Below, piece by piece: positions 18,189 to 37,203 of a stretch of DNA of 64,000 nt. Below the pieces are notes generated by a model. It was not told the origin of the DNA. It made no database searches and saw only the letters and a list, made by a program, of their open reading frames with translations. The stretch spans positions 2,760-66,759 of the IMG/VR virus record IMGVR_UViG_3300030097_000310, one strand, 5' to 3'. Every line of letters begins with the position of its first letter. Within the stretch, counting starts at the first letter, position 1. A program made the translations under genes and the position numbers. The stretch comes from a virus. Taxonomy: Duplodnaviria > Caudoviricetes.

Positions 18189-19082
18189 ATGGATACGTCC
18201 GAACGCGGGCGCGCGTTTATTCGCGCGCACGAAGGGAATCCGCTTACCGCCTATCTCGACCCGGTCGGCGTGCCTACGATCGGCGTAGGCTTTACCAACG
18301 CCTCCAAGGTGGCAACCGAAATGCTCGGCAAGATTGTTCCTGGCAAGACAAAAATCACCGCGGCGCAGAGCGACCGTATTTTTGCGGCTATGCTCGATCG
18401 CGAGTACGAGCCGAAAATCAACATGCCAGGAGCCAAGCAGCACGAGTTCGACTGCGGCGCGTCCGTCGTCTGGAATCTTGGCGGCGGCGCCATGAATTGG
18501 CAATGGGCCAAGCTTTGGCGCGCAGGCAAGAAGAAAGAGTCCGCAGCGTATCTAGGCAGTCACTACAATACCGCGGCCGGTCGCAAGTTGCCGGGCCTTG
18601 TGCGCAGGCGGAAAGAGGAAGCAAAGCTGCTCGAGCATGGCATTTATGCGGGCATCGCGGAAGGCGTGCCGCGCGAGGCGACGCCTGTAAATGTCGGCGC
18701 GGATCCGGTCGTCAAGGAAGCGCAGGAAATCCTTTCGGCCAAGGGTTTCAATCCTGGCGCGATCGACGGCTGGATGGGTCCGAAGACGCGGGATGCAATC
18801 ATCGCATATCAGAAGGCGCACCCGCACCTTGTAAACGACGGCATTCTTGGGCCGGCGACGCTTTCGCAGCTTCGCCGAGACGCTCAGGCGGTCAAGGACG
18901 CGGTCGGCAAGGGCGGCGGAGCGGTTGTCGGTACAGGCGCGCTTTCGTTCGTCAGCGGCCTTCCTTGGGGATGGATTGCAGCCGGAGTCGCTGTCGCCGC
19001 CGTCGCGTATTTCGCGTGGCGCTACCGTGACGTCATTGCGCGCCGCATCAATACGCTGCGCGGAAAGACGGTGGAGGTTTAG
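18189..19082 (+). CDS. Endolysin: GH24 lysozyme + peptidoglycan-binding domain + C-terminal hydrophobic segment
   Basis: HEGNPLTAYLDPVGVPTIGVG, GLVRRRKEEA, DGWMGPKT...DGILGPAT. Confidence 0.93.
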   Translation: MDTSERGRAFIRAHEGNPLTAYLDPVGVPTIGVGFTNASKVATEMLGKIVPGKTKITAAQSDRIFAAMLDREYEPKINMPGAKQHEFDCGASVVWNLGGGAMNWQWAKLWRAGKKKESAAYLGSHYNTAAGRKLPGLVRRRKEEAKLLEHGIYAGIAEGVPREATPVNVGADPVVKEAQEILSAKGFNPGAIDGWMGPKTRDAIIAYQKAHPHLVNDGILGPATLSQLRRDAQAVKDAVGKGGGAVVGTGALSFVSGLPWGWIAAGVAVAAVAYFAWRYRDVIARRINTLRGKTVEV

Positions 19083-19502: not shown

Positions 19503-19844
19503 TTGACTTGGGCAGATTTTATTACAGCAATGGGCGGCGTGCTCGGCTTGTTTTTGGCGATATTCGGCGTGTGGAAATACATCGACGCGAAATTAACTCA
19601 GGTGCGCGAGCACAGTTCAGCGCAGAGTGCCGCGGCTATGGCCGTAGCTAGCGCCGCAGAGCGCGATCTGGCGGCGCACCGCACGCACGTTGCCGAGACA
19701 TACGCGACAAAGCAGGGCATGCACGAACAGACCAGTCAAATCATGGCCGCCATTAATGGCATCGGCCTGCGCATCGACGGTCTTTACGATCTGTTCGGCC
19801 ACACGACGCGAAAGAAGACGACCAAAAGCGACGACGATACATAG
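19503..19844 (+). CDS. Lysis-cassette membrane protein
   Basis: N-terminal TM plus coiled coil. Confidence 0.55.
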   Translation: MTWADFITAMGGVLGLFLAIFGVWKYIDAKLTQVREHSSAQSAAAMAVASAAERDLAAHRTHVAETYATKQGMHEQTSQIMAAINGIGLRIDGLYDLFGHTTRKKTTKSDDDT

Positions 19845-19862: not shown

Positions 19863-19894
19863 ACCGCCTATCCGAGAGGGTAGGCGGTTTTTTT
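19863..19894 (+). terminator. Terminator ending the late operon
   Basis: ACCGCCTA...TAGGCGGT followed by a T run. Confidence 0.9.
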
Positions 19895-19937: not shown

Positions 19938-19966
19938 TTGACCATATAGGCGAAAACGCATATTGT
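19938..19966 (+). promoter_or_regulatory. sigma70-type promoter with operator 19947-19962
   Basis: TTGACC-N17-TATTGT; TAGGCGAAAACGCATA. Confidence 0.85.
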
Positions 19967-19999
19967 GCGAATCCTTATACACGACGAAAGGGTTTCGCC

Positions 20000-20170
20000 A
20001 TGAAGTGGATTTTTATTTTAGCCATTTACTCCAACCCAACCGGGTTGACGCTCAATCACGTTGAGTTCGACACATTGGAGCAATGCCTCGCGTTTGAGAC
20101 GTTAGCCAAGCACCACAGCGACAGGCTGACGCTCGTCGAGACGACATGCTTGGCCGTTTCCACTGACTAA
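20000..20170 (+). CDS. Hypothetical small protein
   Basis: GAAAGGG RBS; first gene after promoter. Confidence 0.55.
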   Translation: MKWIFILAIYSNPTGLTLNHVEFDTLEQCLAFETLAKHHSDRLTLVETTCLAVSTD

Positions 20171-20205: not shown

Positions 20206-20829
20206 ATGAAAAAGCTAATAGCAACCGCGGCAATAGCCGCGCTGGTTTCAGGGTGCGCGTATTCTCCGACTACGTTTCCTGACCATAAGGTCGGGCCGAA
20301 TATCCGGTTTGAGGCGACGAAGGCCGGCAAGGCAGGGGTCGGGTCTGGAGTTTACATCGGTAACGGCGTCATCATTACGGCGGCGCACGTTCTGGACGGC
20401 GCAGAAAACCTTGTTATCAAGTCGGAAGCCGGAGACGTCCAAGCGGGGCGCATTCTTTGGATGAATACGGATTACGATATCGCGGCTGTTGCGCCCAACA
20501 ATCCGGACCGATTTCGAGTTGCGCACCTTGCCTGCCGCGAGCCGAGCGTCGGCGAAAACATATCCGCTACAGGCAATCCGTTCGGCTTGGATTTCATCAC
20601 CATGCGCGGTTACGTGTCTGGAGAGTCGCGCCGTTTCGATGGAAATTGGGAGCACGCCTTTCCTACCGACTTGACCACGATTGGCGGCATGTCCGGCGGC
20701 GCTACATACGACGAATACGGCGACGTTATCGGCGTCACTGTCGGAACGTTTAGCTTAAATGGACCGGCAGGCGGGCTTGGCGTTATCGTTCCAGGCTCGA
20801 TTGTCTGCAAGCTGTTGGGGCGCGCGTGA
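20206..20829 (+). CDS. Trypsin-like serine protease lipoprotein
   Basis: Lipobox LVSG-C; triad motifs ITAAHV, DYDIA, GGMSGG. Confidence 0.88.
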   Translation: MKKLIATAAIAALVSGCAYSPTTFPDHKVGPNIRFEATKAGKAGVGSGVYIGNGVIITAAHVLDGAENLVIKSEAGDVQAGRILWMNTDYDIAAVAPNNPDRFRVAHLACREPSVGENISATGNPFGLDFITMRGYVSGESRRFDGNWEHAFPTDLTTIGGMSGGATYDEYGDVIGVTVGTFSLNGPAGGLGVIVPGSIVCKLLGRA

Positions 20830-21092
20830 TGCTGAAAATAACCGCAGCCTGCGCCTACATTGTTGCCGCGTCACTGACGTACGGAACAGTATTCAACGAT
20901 ATGCACAACCCGCGGCCTGACTGCGGCGCTAGACCAGATAGCGTGAATCAAGCAAAGCAGTACGAGATTTGGTACGATTGCCAATTCGGTGACCATACGG
21001 ACGCGTTCGAAGCAGGGCTCGCGGCAGCTTACGCCGCTGCTTTCTGGCCGCTCTATTGGGCGGGTCGGATCGGAATTGCGGTGACGAAATGA
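20826..21092 (+). CDS. Hypothetical membrane protein
   Basis: Two hydrophobic ends; coupled overlaps. Confidence 0.6.
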   Translation: MMLKITAACAYIVAASLTYGTVFNDMHNPRPDCGARPDSVNQAKQYEIWYDCQFGDHTDAFEAGLAAAYAAAFWPLYWAGRIGIAVTK

Positions 21093-21583
21093 TGCACAAC
21101 CACCTAATCTACCGGCTTATAATCGTCACAACGGCCGGCGCTGCATTGCTTTACGCGGCGCACAGCCTCGGCTATATCGCGCCGCTATTCAAGTCGGATG
21201 CTTCGTACTTGTCTTATGCGATCGCAGCACTGTTCGCATTCGGCCTTGCGTCGACATTCACGCGAGCCGCGCGCGTCGGTAGGGCGCTAAACCTTCGCTA
21301 CACGGCGCCAATAGACCAACGCAACGTCGCCAAGATGGACGCCAAGAACGCGCACATCGCCGACATATCCGGGTGGCTGCTGCAGTTGGGTTTCCTTGGA
21401 ACGGTTATCGGCTTGTGGATAGCGCTCGCCGGCCTGTCCGCAGACAACACGGACGCGCTTATCATCGGGCTAAAGACGGCGGTCGGCACGACAATCCTTG
21501 GCGGGTTCCTGTCGCTGTGGACGGACATTAACCGGCGCATGCTAGACACGGCGACTGAATGCTTGGTGGAGGATATGAAGTGA
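21089..21583 (+). CDS. MotA/TolQ/ExbB proton-channel family protein
   Basis: LGFLGTVIG and GLKTAVGTTILG match the two channel helices. Confidence 0.8.
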   Translation: MMHNHLIYRLIIVTTAGAALLYAAHSLGYIAPLFKSDASYLSYAIAALFAFGLASTFTRAARVGRALNLRYTAPIDQRNVAKMDAKNAHIADISGWLLQLGFLGTVIGLWIALAGLSADNTDALIIGLKTAVGTTILGGFLSLWTDINRRMLDTATECLVEDMK

Positions 21584-22122
21584 AGCGCCGGCGCGTAAAC
21601 ACGCATGTGATGCTCGGCGATTTCCTGTTCATCCTGCTTATGGTGGTGCTTACGCTTGTAAACCCGCCATCGCAGGACGAGGCTATTGCTGCGCCAGGCA
21701 ATATGATCGTTTCCATAGCGTGGGAGCCTGGACCGGATGACGTCGACCTTTGGGTGCGCGGTCCGGACGGCGTCGCGGTAGGATACAAGCGCAAGAGCTC
21801 TGAGTTGTTCAACCTGCTGCGCGACGACCTTGGCGAAGTCAACGACACCATGCCGTTGAACTACGAAAACGCATACAGCCGCGGACTGCCCGATGGCGAG
21901 TACATCGTAAACCTGCATTGCTATTCATGCTCTGTGTCGCACGAAGTGGCGGTAGAGATACGCATGGGGCGCGACGAAACTAAGCTTGTTTTCAAGGAAA
22001 ACGTAACCCTAGCGCCAAGGCAGGAGCGCACCGTTGTGCGGTTTTACGTCCGCGACGGCAGTACGGTCGCTGGATCCAGAAGCGACATTTTCGAACCTTT
22101 GAGGAGCGGACGCAATGACTGA
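21580..22122 (+). CDS. Single-pass ExbD/MotB-like partner with periplasmic DUF2135/YfaP-like domain
   Basis: TM with Asp (GDFLFILLMVVLTL), DVDLWVRGPDG, GEYIVNLHCY. Confidence 0.55.
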   Translation: MKRRRVNTHVMLGDFLFILLMVVLTLVNPPSQDEAIAAPGNMIVSIAWEPGPDDVDLWVRGPDGVAVGYKRKSSELFNLLRDDLGEVNDTMPLNYENAYSRGLPDGEYIVNLHCYSCSVSHEVAVEIRMGRDETKLVFKENVTLAPRQERTVVRFYVRDGSTVAGSRSDIFEPLRSGRND

Positions 22123-22555
22123 CTACAGCGACATCATCGATCGGCTGGAGAAGGCTGACGGGCCGAGTAGGGAGCTTGACAGCCGTGTTTGGGTAGCGGC
22201 CAATCCTGACGATTTGATTATCGAGAACGATCAACATCACGGGCAGGGGACGGTGCAGTTCTCTGGCGGCGGCTTCGCTCGCGACAGGTTCAAGCTTTGC
22301 GAGATGTACACCGCCTCTCTCGACGCAGCTATTGCCCTCACAGAGAAGCTTTTGCCGGAACATGGCCGGATGCATTCGAAGGGCAGGCTTGCAATCGATG
22401 AGCCTCTTTACGGCGTCAAGCTGTATGAGCATGAGCTTTGTGTCGGCGAAGATCCGCACGAGATAGCGGAAGCAGAGCACGACAGCGAGCCTATAGCCAT
22501 TCTCATAGCCCTTTTCCGCGCCCTTCAAGCGCATGGCAGGACCGACAACCAATGA
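22115..22555 (+). CDS. Hypothetical protein
   Basis: IIDRLEKADGPSRELD...YTASLDAA, a common phage early-protein pattern. Confidence 0.65.
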   Translation: MTDYSDIIDRLEKADGPSRELDSRVWVAANPDDLIIENDQHHGQGTVQFSGGGFARDRFKLCEMYTASLDAAIALTEKLLPEHGRMHSKGRLAIDEPLYGVKLYEHELCVGEDPHEIAEAEHDSEPIAILIALFRALQAHGRTDNQ

Positions 22556-23013
22556 CGCACATCATTACGACATGGCTTGTCATCTTCGCGCTGTTGGCGT
22601 CAGCCGCATGGCTTACCGTCTGGTCGCGGCGCGATACGGTCGGCCGGCTTATCGGGGCGCTGTCGCTACCGCTTGCCGCGGCGATCGCGCTTATGGCGGT
22701 TTACGTGCCGCTAGGCGACCCGCTGCCGCGAATGCCAGCGGACGGAGAGTACAGCGTTATCGGCGCGCGGATTGTGCCAGGCGAGGCGATTTACGTGCTT
22801 ATGTCGGTCGGCGGAGACGAGCCGGTTTACTACCGGATTCCGTATGACGAAAAGACCGCCAAGGAAATGCAGGAAGGTATGTACGACAGGCCGGAAGGCT
22901 CGCCGGAAATGCCGCTAACGATCGAGGGCGGCGAGATAACCATTGGCGGAGAAGGCAACAACGCCGCAGAACTAGAAGCAAAGCGGCCGGAAGCGGTCGT
23001 GATTGGAGGTTGA
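22552..23013 (+). CDS. Membrane protein
   Basis: Two N-terminal TM helices, soluble C-terminal part. Confidence 0.65.
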   Translation: MTHIITTWLVIFALLASAAWLTVWSRRDTVGRLIGALSLPLAAAIALMAVYVPLGDPLPRMPADGEYSVIGARIVPGEAIYVLMSVGGDEPVYYRIPYDEKTAKEMQEGMYDRPEGSPEMPLTIEGGEITIGGEGNNAAELEAKRPEAVVIGG

Positions 23014-23015
23014 AG

Positions 23016-23144
23016 ATGGCGTTTCTTATAGCAGGCATTGGTCTAGCGCTTGCCGCGGGGGCTATTTTTAAAGCAAACCAGATTGCTGCGCTTGGGGTAT
23101 TCATAGCGTCAAACGCCCTTATCATCCACGGTCTTGGAGTTTAA
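23016..23144 (+). CDS. Small two-TM protein
   Basis: GGAGG RBS; MAFLIAGIGLALAAGAIF... 42 aa; below the ORF-track cutoff. Confidence 0.45.
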   Translation: MAFLIAGIGLALAAGAIFKANQIAALGVFIASNALIIHGLGV

Positions 23145-24399
23145 CGATTTGCCCACACCACCAGTCGCAGACGCAACAATCGAGCGCACCGTAGCGGAGC
23201 GCCCAAAACATGATAGCAACGTAGCCGCAGCCGAAGCGCTTGGCATCAGCGAAAAGACCGTCCGGCGCCACCTTGCGCTAGCAGCGGAGCGAGGCATGCT
23301 ATCGCTGGATCCGGTCATGCCAGGCTTCGCGATCAAGAGCGTCGCGAGCAAGACGGCAGGAGGGCATTGGGTAAAGCAAACCAAGGCTGCGGGAGAGGAA
23401 TACGAAACCCCGCCGAACATGGTAATCGGCAAGCGTAGCGTCCTGACCGATTCCGCCGGTCGAGTCATGCTGACGTGGAACAAAGAAGATAAGGCGGCAA
23501 GCAACGCGCTCGACACAATCGAGACTCTAAAGCACGCCTTTGATGATGTCGTTCCGGCTAAACCGAAGCCGTCACCTACAGCAGCAGCAGCCGACTTGCT
23601 TACGCTAGTCCCGTGCAACGATTGGCACTTAAACCTTCTGGCGTGGGAGCGTGAGGTTGGAGAAAATTGGGATCTCCGAATAGCGGAGGAGAAAATTGGC
23701 GGAAGCATAGAGGATGCCATAGATCGGTCTCCTAAGTCTGCTGTTGGTGTAGTGCTTGGCGGCGGAGACCTTGTGCATGCCGACAACAACGAAAACAGAA
23801 CGGCGAAGTCAGGAAACGTACTTGACGCTGATGGGCGGCATCAGAAAGCACTTGAGACCGCGTGCCGCCTTAAGGTTCGGACTATCGACGCAGCACTTAG
23901 GCGAAACGACGACGTTATCGTTCGCATACTGCCAGGCAACCATGATGAGTACACTTCCGTCGCTGTTGCCTACTTCCTTCTTGCCTACTACCGCAATGAG
24001 CCGCGCGTTACGGTGGACGTAGATGCGTCGCTGTTCTGGTGGTACGTCTGGGGTAGGGTTATGCTAGGCGCCACGCACGGACACACAGTAAAGGCTGGCG
24101 ATATGGCGCAGATCATGGCGCACCGCAGGGCAGAGGAATGGGGGTCAACCAAGTTCCGATACGTGCACGTTTTCCACGTCCACCACAAATCTAAGTACGT
24201 AACAGAGGGTGGCGGCGTTATTACCGAGACGCATCAGGCGCCAGTACCGCAGGACTTCTGGCATTACGGCGCTGGATTTCTTTCCGGGCGTTCGGTTCAG
24301 ACCATCAGTTACCATAAGGATTACGGTGAAGTTAGCCGTGCCAGGGTGGCAATTCTAGATGCAGCCAACGACAATGCAATGACGGCGATTGCGGCATGA
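23134..24399 (+). CDS. N-terminal HTH + calcineurin-like metallophosphoesterase
   Basis: AAEALGISEKTVRRHL; NDWH, GGDLVH, PGNHD, ATHGH, HVHH. Confidence 0.8.
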   Translation: MEFNDLPTPPVADATIERTVAERPKHDSNVAAAEALGISEKTVRRHLALAAERGMLSLDPVMPGFAIKSVASKTAGGHWVKQTKAAGEEYETPPNMVIGKRSVLTDSAGRVMLTWNKEDKAASNALDTIETLKHAFDDVVPAKPKPSPTAAAADLLTLVPCNDWHLNLLAWEREVGENWDLRIAEEKIGGSIEDAIDRSPKSAVGVVLGGGDLVHADNNENRTAKSGNVLDADGRHQKALETACRLKVRTIDAALRRNDDVIVRILPGNHDEYTSVAVAYFLLAYYRNEPRVTVDVDASLFWWYVWGRVMLGATHGHTVKAGDMAQIMAHRRAEEWGSTKFRYVHVFHVHHKSKYVTEGGGVITETHQAPVPQDFWHYGAGFLSGRSVQTISYHKDYGEVSRARVAILDAANDNAMTAIAA

Positions 24400-25007
24400 G
24401 TAAAGAATGCGCCGTAGGTGGATGCCTTAAAGAAGCAGTATCTCGTGGTATGTGCAGCGCACACTACCATAGACTCATGCGGTACGGCGACCCGGAATTT
24501 GTTCCGCCAAGAAAGCCACCTTCAATTTGCGCGGTAGATGGATGTACGTCGCAGGTAGGTAGGAGCGGAGGACGCGGTTTCTGCAGGAAGCATTACAAAA
24601 GGCTTTTAGATCATGGTGATCCACTAGGTGGAGGAACTGGAAAAGGCGATGTCATTGCGTTCCTTGATGCGGCTATAAACCGAACTGAGGATGAGTGCCT
24701 TATATTCCCGTTCGCAAGGGATTCTTACGGGTACGCAAGAGTAAATATAGGAGGCAACAACACTCCTGCGCATTCTTATGTGTGCGAAAAGGTAAAAGGT
24801 CAAAAGCCTTCGCCGCTTCATGAGGTTCTGCATTCATGCGGCAACGGGGCCAATGGTTGCGTTAGCGGAAACCACCTTTCGTGGGGAACTAGAAAGGAAA
24901 ACGTGGCTGACGCGATCGAACACGGAACTGCGAAGTTTTGGGGAAGGCCGTGTACCGGCGCAGCTAACGACAACGTACCGGCAAGCGAGAGGAGCGTGGC
25001 GGTATGA
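24396..25007 (+). CDS. HNH endonuclease with two Cys-rich N-terminal repeats
   Basis: CAVGGC..CSAHY and CAVDGC..CRKHY; AHSYV..HSCGN..CV..HLSWGTRKEN. Confidence 0.85.
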   Translation: MSKECAVGGCLKEAVSRGMCSAHYHRLMRYGDPEFVPPRKPPSICAVDGCTSQVGRSGGRGFCRKHYKRLLDHGDPLGGGTGKGDVIAFLDAAINRTEDECLIFPFARDSYGYARVNIGGNNTPAHSYVCEKVKGQKPSPLHEVLHSCGNGANGCVSGNHLSWGTRKENVADAIEHGTAKFWGRPCTGAANDNVPASERSVAV

Positions 25008-36138: not shown

Positions 36139-37203
36139 CTACACCACCTTCCGTGCGTGTTGTTCCAGCTTCAACATAGCCTGCTCCGCGAGCTCGACGC
36201 GCCCGCCTAGATAGTGCGTATCGAGGATTGCCTCGACATCGCGCAGGCTATGGCCGGTAATCGCGGCGATCTGCGAATTACTGCAGCCAGCCAGCGCCAG
36301 GCGCGTAACGGCCGTACCGCGCAGGTCGTGGAAGTGCAGCTTCTCGCCTTTAGCCATCGGCAGGCCGCTATTGCGGTACGCTGTAGCCCACGACGCGCGG
36401 AATCCGTCTTCGGTCCACGGCTTGTTGCGTGTGTTCGTAAGGATGGACGTCGACACACGCGGCGCGGCATCAAGCATCTGCCTTAGCGTCTCGCCAACCG
36501 GAATCGTAACTCGTGCGCCTGTCTTACCTTGCTTGATGCGCAGCGACTTGCCGTCGTACGCATTCCACGCCACACGCAATAGGTCGCCTTCGCGCTGGCC
36601 TGTCCAAAGACCAAGCATTAGCGCCATCTGCAGCGGCCGTCTTGCCGCCTTCATCATGGCCGCGATGTGATCTTCTTCCCAAATGATTTCCGACCGATTA
36701 GCCTTGTATAGCCTGCCGCCGCGCTCGCACACGTTTACCGCAATGCGGCCGTTGTCCTTCGCTACAGACAGCACGCGCGCCAGCGTAACCCAAGCGTAAT
36801 CCGCGGAACGCGGCTTATCCGCCATCGTATCGCGCCATGCCTTGAACGAACCGCGCGCAGATGGATCCTGCACGGCCTCGATCGGCATGTCTGCAATCGC
36901 TGCGCTTTCGATCCTGCCTAGGTAAAGGTCGTAACCTCGGCGCGTCTTGTCTGCTTTCTCCGTGTATTCCGTCGATCGGCGGAACTCGTCGATAAGCGTT
37001 CGCAGCGTGTCGTCGTTCTTTTTCTTGTCCGCCTCGTGCGCGTCTGCGTAGGCTTTCGCTATGCGCTTGTCACCAGGCTGCAGCGCATTGCCGTCCGCGT
37101 CACTAAGCAGCGGACCGCCTCGCCAGGCGTACAGGTAATATTTCTGCTTGCCCCCGGCTAGTTTGGCTTTGACCTTGTGGATACCTTCAAGCACGACTCT
37201 CAC
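36139..37203 (-). CDS. int: Tyrosine integrase
   Basis: TGQREGDL (R), IKQGKT (K), HFHDLRGT (HxxR), ITGHS, THY. Confidence 0.95.
   Translation of the reverse strand: MRVVLEGIHKVKAKLAGGKQKYYLYAWRGGPLLSDADGNALQPGDKRIAKAYADAHEADKKKNDDTLRTLIDEFRRSTEYTEKADKTRRGYDLYLGRIESAAIADMPIEAVQDPSARGSFKAWRDTMADKPRSADYAWVTLARVLSVAKDNGRIAVNVCERGGRLYKANRSEIIWEEDHIAAMMKAARRPLQMALMLGLWTGQREGDLLRVAWNAYDGKSLRIKQGKTGARVTIPVGETLRQMLDAAPRVSTSILTNTRNKPWTEDGFRASWATAYRNSGLPMAKGEKLHFHDLRGTAVTRLALAGCSNSQIAAITGHSLRDVEAILDTHYLGGRVELAEQAMLKLEQHARKVV

Follow-up and report, generated by a model that had tools for sequence, protein, structure and literature searches.

Three conserved phage genes that may encode a minimal ion-driven membrane motor of the 5:2 type

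We describe a group of genes in a 64,000-nucleotide (nt) stretch of viral DNA (Duplodnaviria; Caudoviricetes), which is positions 2,760 to 66,759 of IMG/VR record IMGVR_UViG_3300030097_000310; we call this whole stretch the window. It is a nearly complete genome of a temperate siphovirus that is related to Rhizobium phage 16-3. Just past the lysis cassette, three genes that we call A, B, and C lie within a run of seven open reading frames (ORFs), and we propose that their products form a single ion-driven motor in the inner membrane. The features of this region, with protein lengths in amino acids (aa), are:

19863-19888, + strand: strong hairpin resembling an intrinsic terminator (11-bp stem with 7 GC pairs, tail of seven Ts), which appears to close the lysis cassette
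19938-19966, + strand: candidate sigma-70-like promoter at the head of the operon (TTGACC-17-TATTGT, 9 of 12 matches to the consensus)
20206-20829, + strand: exported lipoprotein protease of the trypsin/HtrA type (Trypsin_2, LPAM lipobox, phrog_9683)
20826-21092, + strand: lineage-specific ORF of 88 aa, coupled on both sides by GTGA and ATGA overlaps
21089-21583, + strand: subunit A, 164 aa, putative four-helix channel protein of the MotA/ExbB/TolQ family (PF01618, predicted fold)
21580-22122 (longest ORF from 21559), + strand: subunit B, single-pass N-in anchor and a periplasmic domain that is predicted to be a TerD-like beta-sandwich
22115-22555, + strand: lineage-specific soluble ORF of 146 aa between B and C, with no transmembrane (TM) segment
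22552-23013, + strand: subunit C, two TM helices, a small conserved periplasmic domain, and a Pro/Gly/Glu-rich tail; p042 is its counterpart in phage 16-3
23010-23144, + strand: lineage-specific membrane ORF of 44 aa, with two hydrophobic segments

We identify A, from its sequence and its predicted fold, as a minimal channel protein of the MotA/ExbB/TolQ family. It matches PF01618 (MotA_ExbB) with E = 2.6e-6 and 27.7 bits, above the curated cut-off of 22.9 (28.4 bits in a whole-genome scan of the locus). It also contains the motifs LGFLGT105VIG and GLKTAVGT134T135ILGG, both of which were quoted in an earlier note on this DNA that placed channel helices in this gene. PADLOC and NCBIfam give weak matches to profiles for ZorA, MotA, and ExbB; those to ZorA cover 50-70 residues at 15-22 bits (best E in PADLOC, 1.2e-5). 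When a profile built from 14 A sequences was compared to the Protein Data Bank (PDB), the best match was MotA from Aquifex (5.5e-5), along with two chains of ZorA and with TolQ, PomA, and ExbB, and all of these matches are confined to the last two helices (TM3-TM4). The AlphaFold2 model of A, from an alignment of 67 sequences, has four helices and a predicted local distance difference test (pLDDT) score of 96.6. By VIA, this model superposes on ExbB (Z = 10.8), TolQ (10.5), MotA (10.3), and ZorA (9.7) over about 138 residues with a root-mean-square deviation of about 3 Å (2.7-4.2 Å), which bears out the MotA/ExbB fold that the earlier note expected.

Across the 67 sequences, G104 and G108 are invariant and T135, G101, G127, A131, and G138 are at least 90% conserved. 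These positions fall within the two motifs, and in the PDB alignment they pair with the G-T-L-I-G and I-T-T of MotA. Given the positive-inside rule and the AlphaFold2 model, A would have a MotA-like topology: N-terminus inside, four helices, and a cytoplasmic stretch of about 35 residues joining helix 2 to helix 3. The family is large, with 593 clusters at E ≤ 1e-10.

B most likely begins at the GTG at 21580, which overlaps the stop codon of A (GTGA) and has GGAGGA 7 nt upstream; the ESM Atlas record begins at the same residue. It has a single strongly hydrophobic helix (residues 16-34, Kyte-Doolittle peak 2.41) that is preceded by KRRR, and because the N-terminus is positively charged, the C-terminal domain should be periplasmic. 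An aspartate within this helix (D21) is invariant in all 30 homologues that we aligned, and its context (D-F-L-F-I-L-L) resembles that in the host's own ExbD/TolR helices (D-V-M-L-V-L-L). Other invariant residues are D61, D63, D89, D90, D96, N101, E103, E133, and E156, and the motifs DVDLW and LLRDD are invariant as well. In total we found 1128 homologues of B.

The periplasmic domain of B is predicted to be a TerD-like beta-sandwich rather than the domain of ExbD, TolR, or MotB. In the AlphaFold2 model (pLDDT 87.9), the periplasmic part is a sandwich of eight strands, and VIA superposes it on TerD structures with Z = 9.6 and 9.0 over 127-133 residues, while the next row is at 6.6; Foldseek agrees. 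At the sequence level, none of the 30 members has a meaningful Pfam match: they lack matches to PF02342 (TerD), and to PF02472 (ExbD/TolR) and PF09906 (DUF2135/YfaP-type) at E ≤ 1. OmpA/MotB families from Pfam, NCBIfam, and PADLOC did not match B, and the B profile hit nothing among PDB sequences at E ≤ 10. A feature look-alike in the ESM Atlas, DUF2135, has a score of 0.89, too low to count as anything beyond a lead. Metal binding, by analogy to TerD, would fit the invariant acidic and polar residues. The linker between the helix and the sandwich is just ~12 residues, so the sandwich would have to stay near the membrane, too far from the cell wall for the kind of contact that MotB makes.

C has two TM segments by hydropathy and about 100 periplasmic residues. 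Across 65 sequences, the periplasmic part shares the motif G.Y.V.GA.I...AIYVLLD...P.YY.LPY...AN.LQ.A.D, and there is no conserved histidine in those sequences. No named relatives turned up in Pfam, PHROGs, NCBIfam, PADLOC, or the ESM Atlas. We also searched for longer, fused forms of C and found none, which by the method's own caveat is weak evidence. A structural search of the Atlas with C listed a cluster of phage lysozymes of 297 aa (template-modelling score 0.55).

The unit is the three genes A, B, and C. We fetched 80 viral loci with the B profile, added four phage records, and searched these 84 related loci with hidden Markov models (HMMs) and phmmer. A and B are each present in 83 of the 84 and co-occur in essentially every locus; C is present in 79 of the 83 loci with A and B, and in 77 of those 79 the genes are on the same strand in the order A-B-C. 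The gap between B and C ranges from a 4-nt overlap (-4) to over 1000 nt, and some phages have homing endonuclease genes there. Purifying selection acts on all three genes of the trio, with dN/dS (the ratio of nonsynonymous to synonymous substitution rates) of 0.17 for A, 0.18 for B, and 0.26 for C. The carriers are diverse and include siphoviruses, T4-like myoviruses, and contigs of about 200 kb. One group has the trio beside genes for the portal, small terminase, scaffold, and major head proteins; another has it beside RuvC-like and DnaB-like genes; and in T4-like phages the neighbors are gyrase, a late sigma factor, and gp46/47-like genes, which is an early/middle context. Given such varied flanking genes, the trio behaves as a cassette that stands on its own. 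A gene for a PF01618-like protein precedes B in the T4-like Rhizobium phage RHph_I1_9, and a divergent C follows it. Phage 16-3, which infects Sinorhizobium meliloti, has counterparts of the protease and the trio (p036, p038, p040, and p042). In RHph_TM3_3_14B (L004:3198-3956), a gene for a Seg-like homing endonuclease splits A from B, and in RHph_X2_25 (L002:6315-6857), a gene for an HNH homing endonuclease splits B from C.

The other three small ORFs (20826-21092, 22115-22555, and 23010-23144) are lineage-specific fillers that lie outside of the module. The 88-aa ORF has no match in Pfam or PHROG, no tblastn match in 50,697 phage records, and no relative in the 84 loci. For the 146-aa ORF there is no match in Pfam, PHROG, PADLOC, or NCBIfam, and tblastn found no relative in the phage collection, nor is there one in the 84 loci. 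Phmmer found no relative of the 44-aa ORF in any of the 84.

The earlier note had described a two-gene module, MotA/TolQ plus ExbD-like, with three further membrane proteins around it. Our results alter this picture in several ways. Three genes make up the unit, which also has relatives in chromosomes. The next gene after A does encode one TM helix with an aspartate and a periplasmic domain, but "ExbD-like" suits the helix and not the domain. Among the three surrounding proteins, C and the 44-aa ORF (two helices each) are membrane proteins, while the 88-aa ORF has no segment above the hydropathy threshold. The soluble 146-aa ORF between B and C was left out of that gene set. Conservation of the neighborhood, which the note had expected to see, extends from the A-B pair to C but not to the other small ORFs.

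The trio is also found in bacterial chromosomes. Matches to the B profile are present in 55 of 401 evenly drawn genomes of alphaproteobacterial species (about 14%), or 44 of 308 genera. All three genes were found in 17 of the 19 chromosomal loci that we fetched, and one more, which is cut by the end of the contig, shows just A and B. (In these GC-rich loci, our longest-ORF caller chose antisense shadow ORFs, so we used the chromosomal maps only for genes identified by HMMs and for neighbors checked with Pfam.) The Pfam-checked neighbors are housekeeping genes: CtaA/COX15, TldD/PmbA, GMC oxidoreductase, NYN, and APH. Some very small genomes contain the trio as well. As called, the chromosomal A reading frames are roughly 200-370 aa, versus a median of 163 aa for the phage A ORFs; the phage trio is a miniature of the chromosomal alphaproteobacterial trio. 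In one chromosomal locus (L111:5851-6936, from genome G147), a gene for a protein with Sel1 repeats and a PG_binding_1 domain lies divergently beside the trio, which might hint at peptidoglycan, in one genome.

The phage's host is an alphaproteobacterium (4.13-Mb assembly, about 57% GC). The only copy of B in the host genome is the phage's, with no cellular copy. The host has four ordinary PF01618 genes, whose neighbors are TolR, ExbD/TonB, or of flagellar type (Tol, two Exb sets, and MotA). Their reading frames are 211-299 aa, so they are too short to be ZorA.

The gene upstream (20206-20829) encodes a putative exported protease, with matches to Trypsin_2 (7.7e-21) and to phrog_9683 protease (1.7e-38), an LPAM lipobox (LVSGC), and no PDZ domain; p036 is the 16-3 counterpart. 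A homologue is directly upstream of A in 45 of the 84 loci, and all 44 complete copies have an export signal (a lipobox or other); the 45th is cut by a contig end. Forty of these 45 loci are from the 16-3-like lineage, in which a downstream exonuclease is shared as well, so most of the protease association represents a single lineage. A second group of phages (L079-L083) encodes an exported trypsin-like protease of 367 aa in the order C-protease-A-B, and this different order supports a functional link to the protease independently of the protease-A-B-C group. The tie to the adjacent protease that the earlier note had suggested is thereby strengthened by synteny in two gene orders. By phmmer, 36 of the 84 loci have neither the protease nor the 16-3-type exonuclease beside the trio, and we found no such protease in the 20 chromosomal trio loci that we examined. 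In four IMG/VR contigs of the second group (L079, L080, L082, and L083), A is very short (129 aa) and the protease gene is embedded inside the module.

Every junction from the protease through the 44-aa ORF is either an overlap of 4 to 8 nt or has tight spacing between a Shine-Dalgarno sequence and an ATG; for the 44-aa ORF, the likely start is the ATG at 23016, with GGAGG 6 nt upstream. Given these chained junctions, the seven ORFs are probably all translated from a single mRNA. The operon runs on downstream into genes for an exonuclease, an HNH protein, and a phosphatase (nucleotide/DNA metabolism). Immediately upstream of the module are the endolysin and two more genes of the lysis cassette, and the terminator-like hairpin begins 19 nt past the stop codon of the last of these (19503-19844). 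An ORF of about 57 aa with a hydrophobic N-terminus (19997-20170, starting MKWIFILAIYS) lies between the promoter-like site and the protease gene. Behind the exonuclease, the HNH-like gene (203 aa, 24396-25007) has relatives at varying positions in nine related loci.

Ion-driven 5:2 motors power flagella, gliding, type IX secretion, Ton-dependent uptake, envelope maintenance by Tol-Pal, and Zorya defence, and cryo-EM structures have been solved for MotAB, ExbBD, TolQR, and ZorAB. The trio resembles ExbB-ExbD-TonB and TolQ-TolR-TolA in having three membrane components, ordered as a channel, a single-pass partner with an aspartate, and an anchored periplasmic protein. A matches the family of ExbB and TolQ and superposes on them at Z = 10.5-10.8, and the helix of B has the D-x-x-L-x-L-L pattern of ExbD and TolR. 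Unlike ExbB and TolQ, A has four helices, an N-terminus that is predicted to be inside, and nearly no cytoplasmic domain, and it has 164 aa instead of about 230-245. The predicted TerD-like sandwich of B replaces the alpha/beta domain of ExbD and TolR. TonB and TolA are anchored by a single N-terminal TM helix that bears a conserved Ser/His motif, and they have a long linker in the periplasm and a C-terminal TonB_C or TolA domain; C differs in having two TM helices, no conserved histidine, no TonB_C or TolA domain, and a periplasmic part of just ~100 residues.

The likeness to MotA-MotB and PomA-PomB lies in the four helices of A, in Aquifex MotA being its best sequence match in the PDB, in the threonine and glycine residues of TM3 and TM4, and in the aspartate of the B helix. 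But the trio lacks the cytoplasmic domain that contacts the rotor, B lacks the OmpA-like domain that binds peptidoglycan, there are no flagellar genes nearby, and there is an additional third subunit. ZorA-ZorB of Zorya are, like the trio, relatives of MotAB that are connected with phage infection, and A has weak matches to ZorA profiles and a structural Z of 9.7. However, ZorA proteins, of ~450-730 aa, end in a long coiled-coil tail and act together with ZorC and ZorD or with ZorE, while A has 164 aa and is on the phage's side; none of the neighboring genes matches the PADLOC models for the Zorya partners. We rejected membership in Zorya because A is tailless, its matches to ZorA are short and weak, and there are no Zor partners. 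As for TerD, TerE, and TerZ, TerD structures can be superposed on the periplasmic domain of B, in which many acidic residues are invariant, but TerD is soluble and cytoplasmic, whereas the domain of B would be periplasmic and tethered to a motor helix. The trio thus has the channel and aspartate features of these motors and lacks the defining periplasmic features of ExbD/TolR, MotB, ZorAB, and TonB/TolA. By analogy, it appears to work like those motors, yet it belongs to none of them.

We put the probability that A, B, and C form one ion-driven inner-membrane motor of the MotAB/ExbBD/TolQR kind, and of the 5:2 type, at about 60%. The family of A, its predicted fold, the invariant aspartate of B, the threonine and glycine residues of the channel, the co-conservation of the genes, and purifying selection all favor this, and they also support the earlier note's idea of a minimal motor coupled to the proton motive force. 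We infer the stoichiometry, the rotation, the ion, the topology of C, the timing of expression, and the biological output. By analogy to the solved 5:2 motors, the helices of two B subunits would pair inside a ring of four-helix A subunits. Protons or another cation would hop via the aspartate of B past the conserved threonine and glycine residues of the last two helices of A, and this passage would turn A relative to B. Since A has nearly no cytoplasmic domain, the motor would most likely do its work in the periplasm. There, one output element would be the acidic TerD-like sandwich of B, close to the membrane and perhaps binding Ca2+. The other would be C, which may occupy the rim of the ring formed by A, in the manner of TonB and TolA on ExbB and TolQ, and which would contribute its periplasmic domain and Pro-rich tail. 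The trio and the trypsin-like lipoprotein would be produced together, from an operon whose start lies past the lysis terminator and which runs into the DNA-metabolism genes.

Our best guess for the output, with low confidence, is an energised change to the envelope or periplasm of the infected cell, such as superinfection exclusion or the processing of envelope proteins, and not lysis itself. The terminator- and promoter-like sites that separate the operon from the lysis genes, together with the early/middle context in T4-like phages, favor a non-lysis role during infection. In its fullest form the proposal is tentative and more likely wrong than right: the trio would be the smallest known 5:2-type motor, a self-contained three-part periplasmic machine that, with an exported protease, uses the proton gradient to remodel the envelope, for example to shut out competing phages.

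Several findings weigh against these proposals. The Pfam match of A spans only its last two helices. Values of Z of 10-11 can also be reached between unrelated helical bundles, and the Foldseek E values for A are weak (1e-2 or weaker, with a template-modelling score of 0.59 to ZorA), so the assignment of A to its family rests on sequence and fold jointly. The pairwise distances of A, B, and C are correlated across loci (Mantel r = 0.78-0.86), but this reflects joint inheritance, is expected of any co-inherited neighbors, and does not amount to evidence of contact. The promoter and the terminator are consensus matches only, and promoter-like matches are no more common in this region than in shuffled sequence. 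Also, the trio lies among late head genes in some phages, which is a poor fit to an early exclusion role.

The phage might instead bring its own copy of a cellular envelope motor and so supply or boost its housekeeping function, for instance in hosts that lack it. The presence of the same A-B-C genes in chromosomes beside housekeeping genes (CtaA, TldD, GMC oxidoreductase), including those of very small genomes, is consistent with this, as is the absence of a cellular B from this host. We consider it unlikely, given that the phage A is clearly shortened and that the protease is absent from the chromosomal loci; also, this idea explains little. A role as an accessory to lysis seems quite unlikely to us. 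The trio would sense or use the proton gradient, restrain the protease or another envelope-disrupting step until the gradient is collapsed by the holin, and at lysis contribute to detachment of the outer membrane. The module of 16-3-like phages is indeed directly behind the lysis cassette (endolysin, phrog_12264, and phrog_7885), the exported protease is translationally coupled to it, and in one viral locus (L070) a gene of the endolysin cluster follows the trio by less than 400 nt. But the strong terminator and the promoter-like site intervene, and the operon extends into genes for the exonuclease and nucleotide metabolism. The 16-3-type protease/exonuclease flank is missing from the 36 loci mentioned above, the annotated examples among these have the trio amid head or replication genes, and in the T4-like rhizobiophages the trio is among gyrase, late sigma factor, and gp46/47-like genes.

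The A-B pair could also be just a regulated channel that lowers the membrane potential and does no mechanical work. Little of A is left beyond its membrane helices, and unplugged MotAB and ExbBD conduct protons, so such a leak is conceivable. We think it improbable because B and C have strongly conserved periplasmic domains that are rich in invariant acidic residues and subject to purifying selection, and a leak would need neither domain. Finally, the earlier note suggested that the small subunits poison the host's Tol, Ton, or Zorya complexes through mixed oligomers; A or B would enter TolQR, ExbBD, MotAB, or ZorAB and disable them as a dominant-negative decoy. They do share a superfamily, there is the weak PADLOC match to ZorA, and the host's Tol, two Exb sets, and MotA are possible targets. 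However, A is very distant from the host's four PF01618 proteins, with likeness to host-type A subunits limited to two helices (E ~1e-3 to 1e-6), and none of the four is the size of ZorA. The phage also supplies complete, co-evolving partners in B and C, and a poison is a poor fit to cellular genomes that keep the same trio. This seems very improbable to us.

If A, B, and C do form a motor, then the 5:2 family gains a branch with two unclassified partners. Our search of the literature found no description of the trio: neither phage-borne forms nor a partner architecture of this kind appears in surveys of 5:2 motors or of periplasmic force transducers, and the genome paper for AP-16-3 and 16-3 does not mention these genes. 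If the motor also remodels the envelope, that would be a new class of output for the family and the first on the phage's side of the conflict between phages and hosts; a phage-encoded motor would be the mirror image of Zorya. The small size of the trio makes it an attractive minimal model for how such motors turn. Because phage 16-3 has counterparts, their function can be tested directly in a tractable laboratory pair of phage and host.

The rest of the window and the contig that it comes from (C18) support its description as a phage genome. PHROG scans identified a major head protein, tape measure, central tail fibre, integrase, helicase, primase/polymerase, and sliding clamp. At 100.6 kb, the contig contains about 1.5 head-to-tail units of a 66.8-kb phage genome: its terminal 32.9 kb (C18:66773-99628) duplicates its initial 32.9 kb (C18:4-32859), and the two copies are 99.96% identical and spaced about 66.8 kb apart. 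The integrase gene (36139-37203, - strand) is flanked on both sides by phage genes. Since the contig is a concatemer with phage genes around the integrase, it seems that free or replicating phage was captured; we rejected an integrated prophage, as there is also no host DNA at either end of the contig. The endolysin (18189-19082) has GH24 phage lysozyme and PG_binding_1 domains and a Gly/Ala-rich hydrophobic segment near its C-terminus (residues ~254-276). This hydrophobic tail anchor is at the opposite end of the protein from classical N-terminal signal-arrest-release (SAR) signals.

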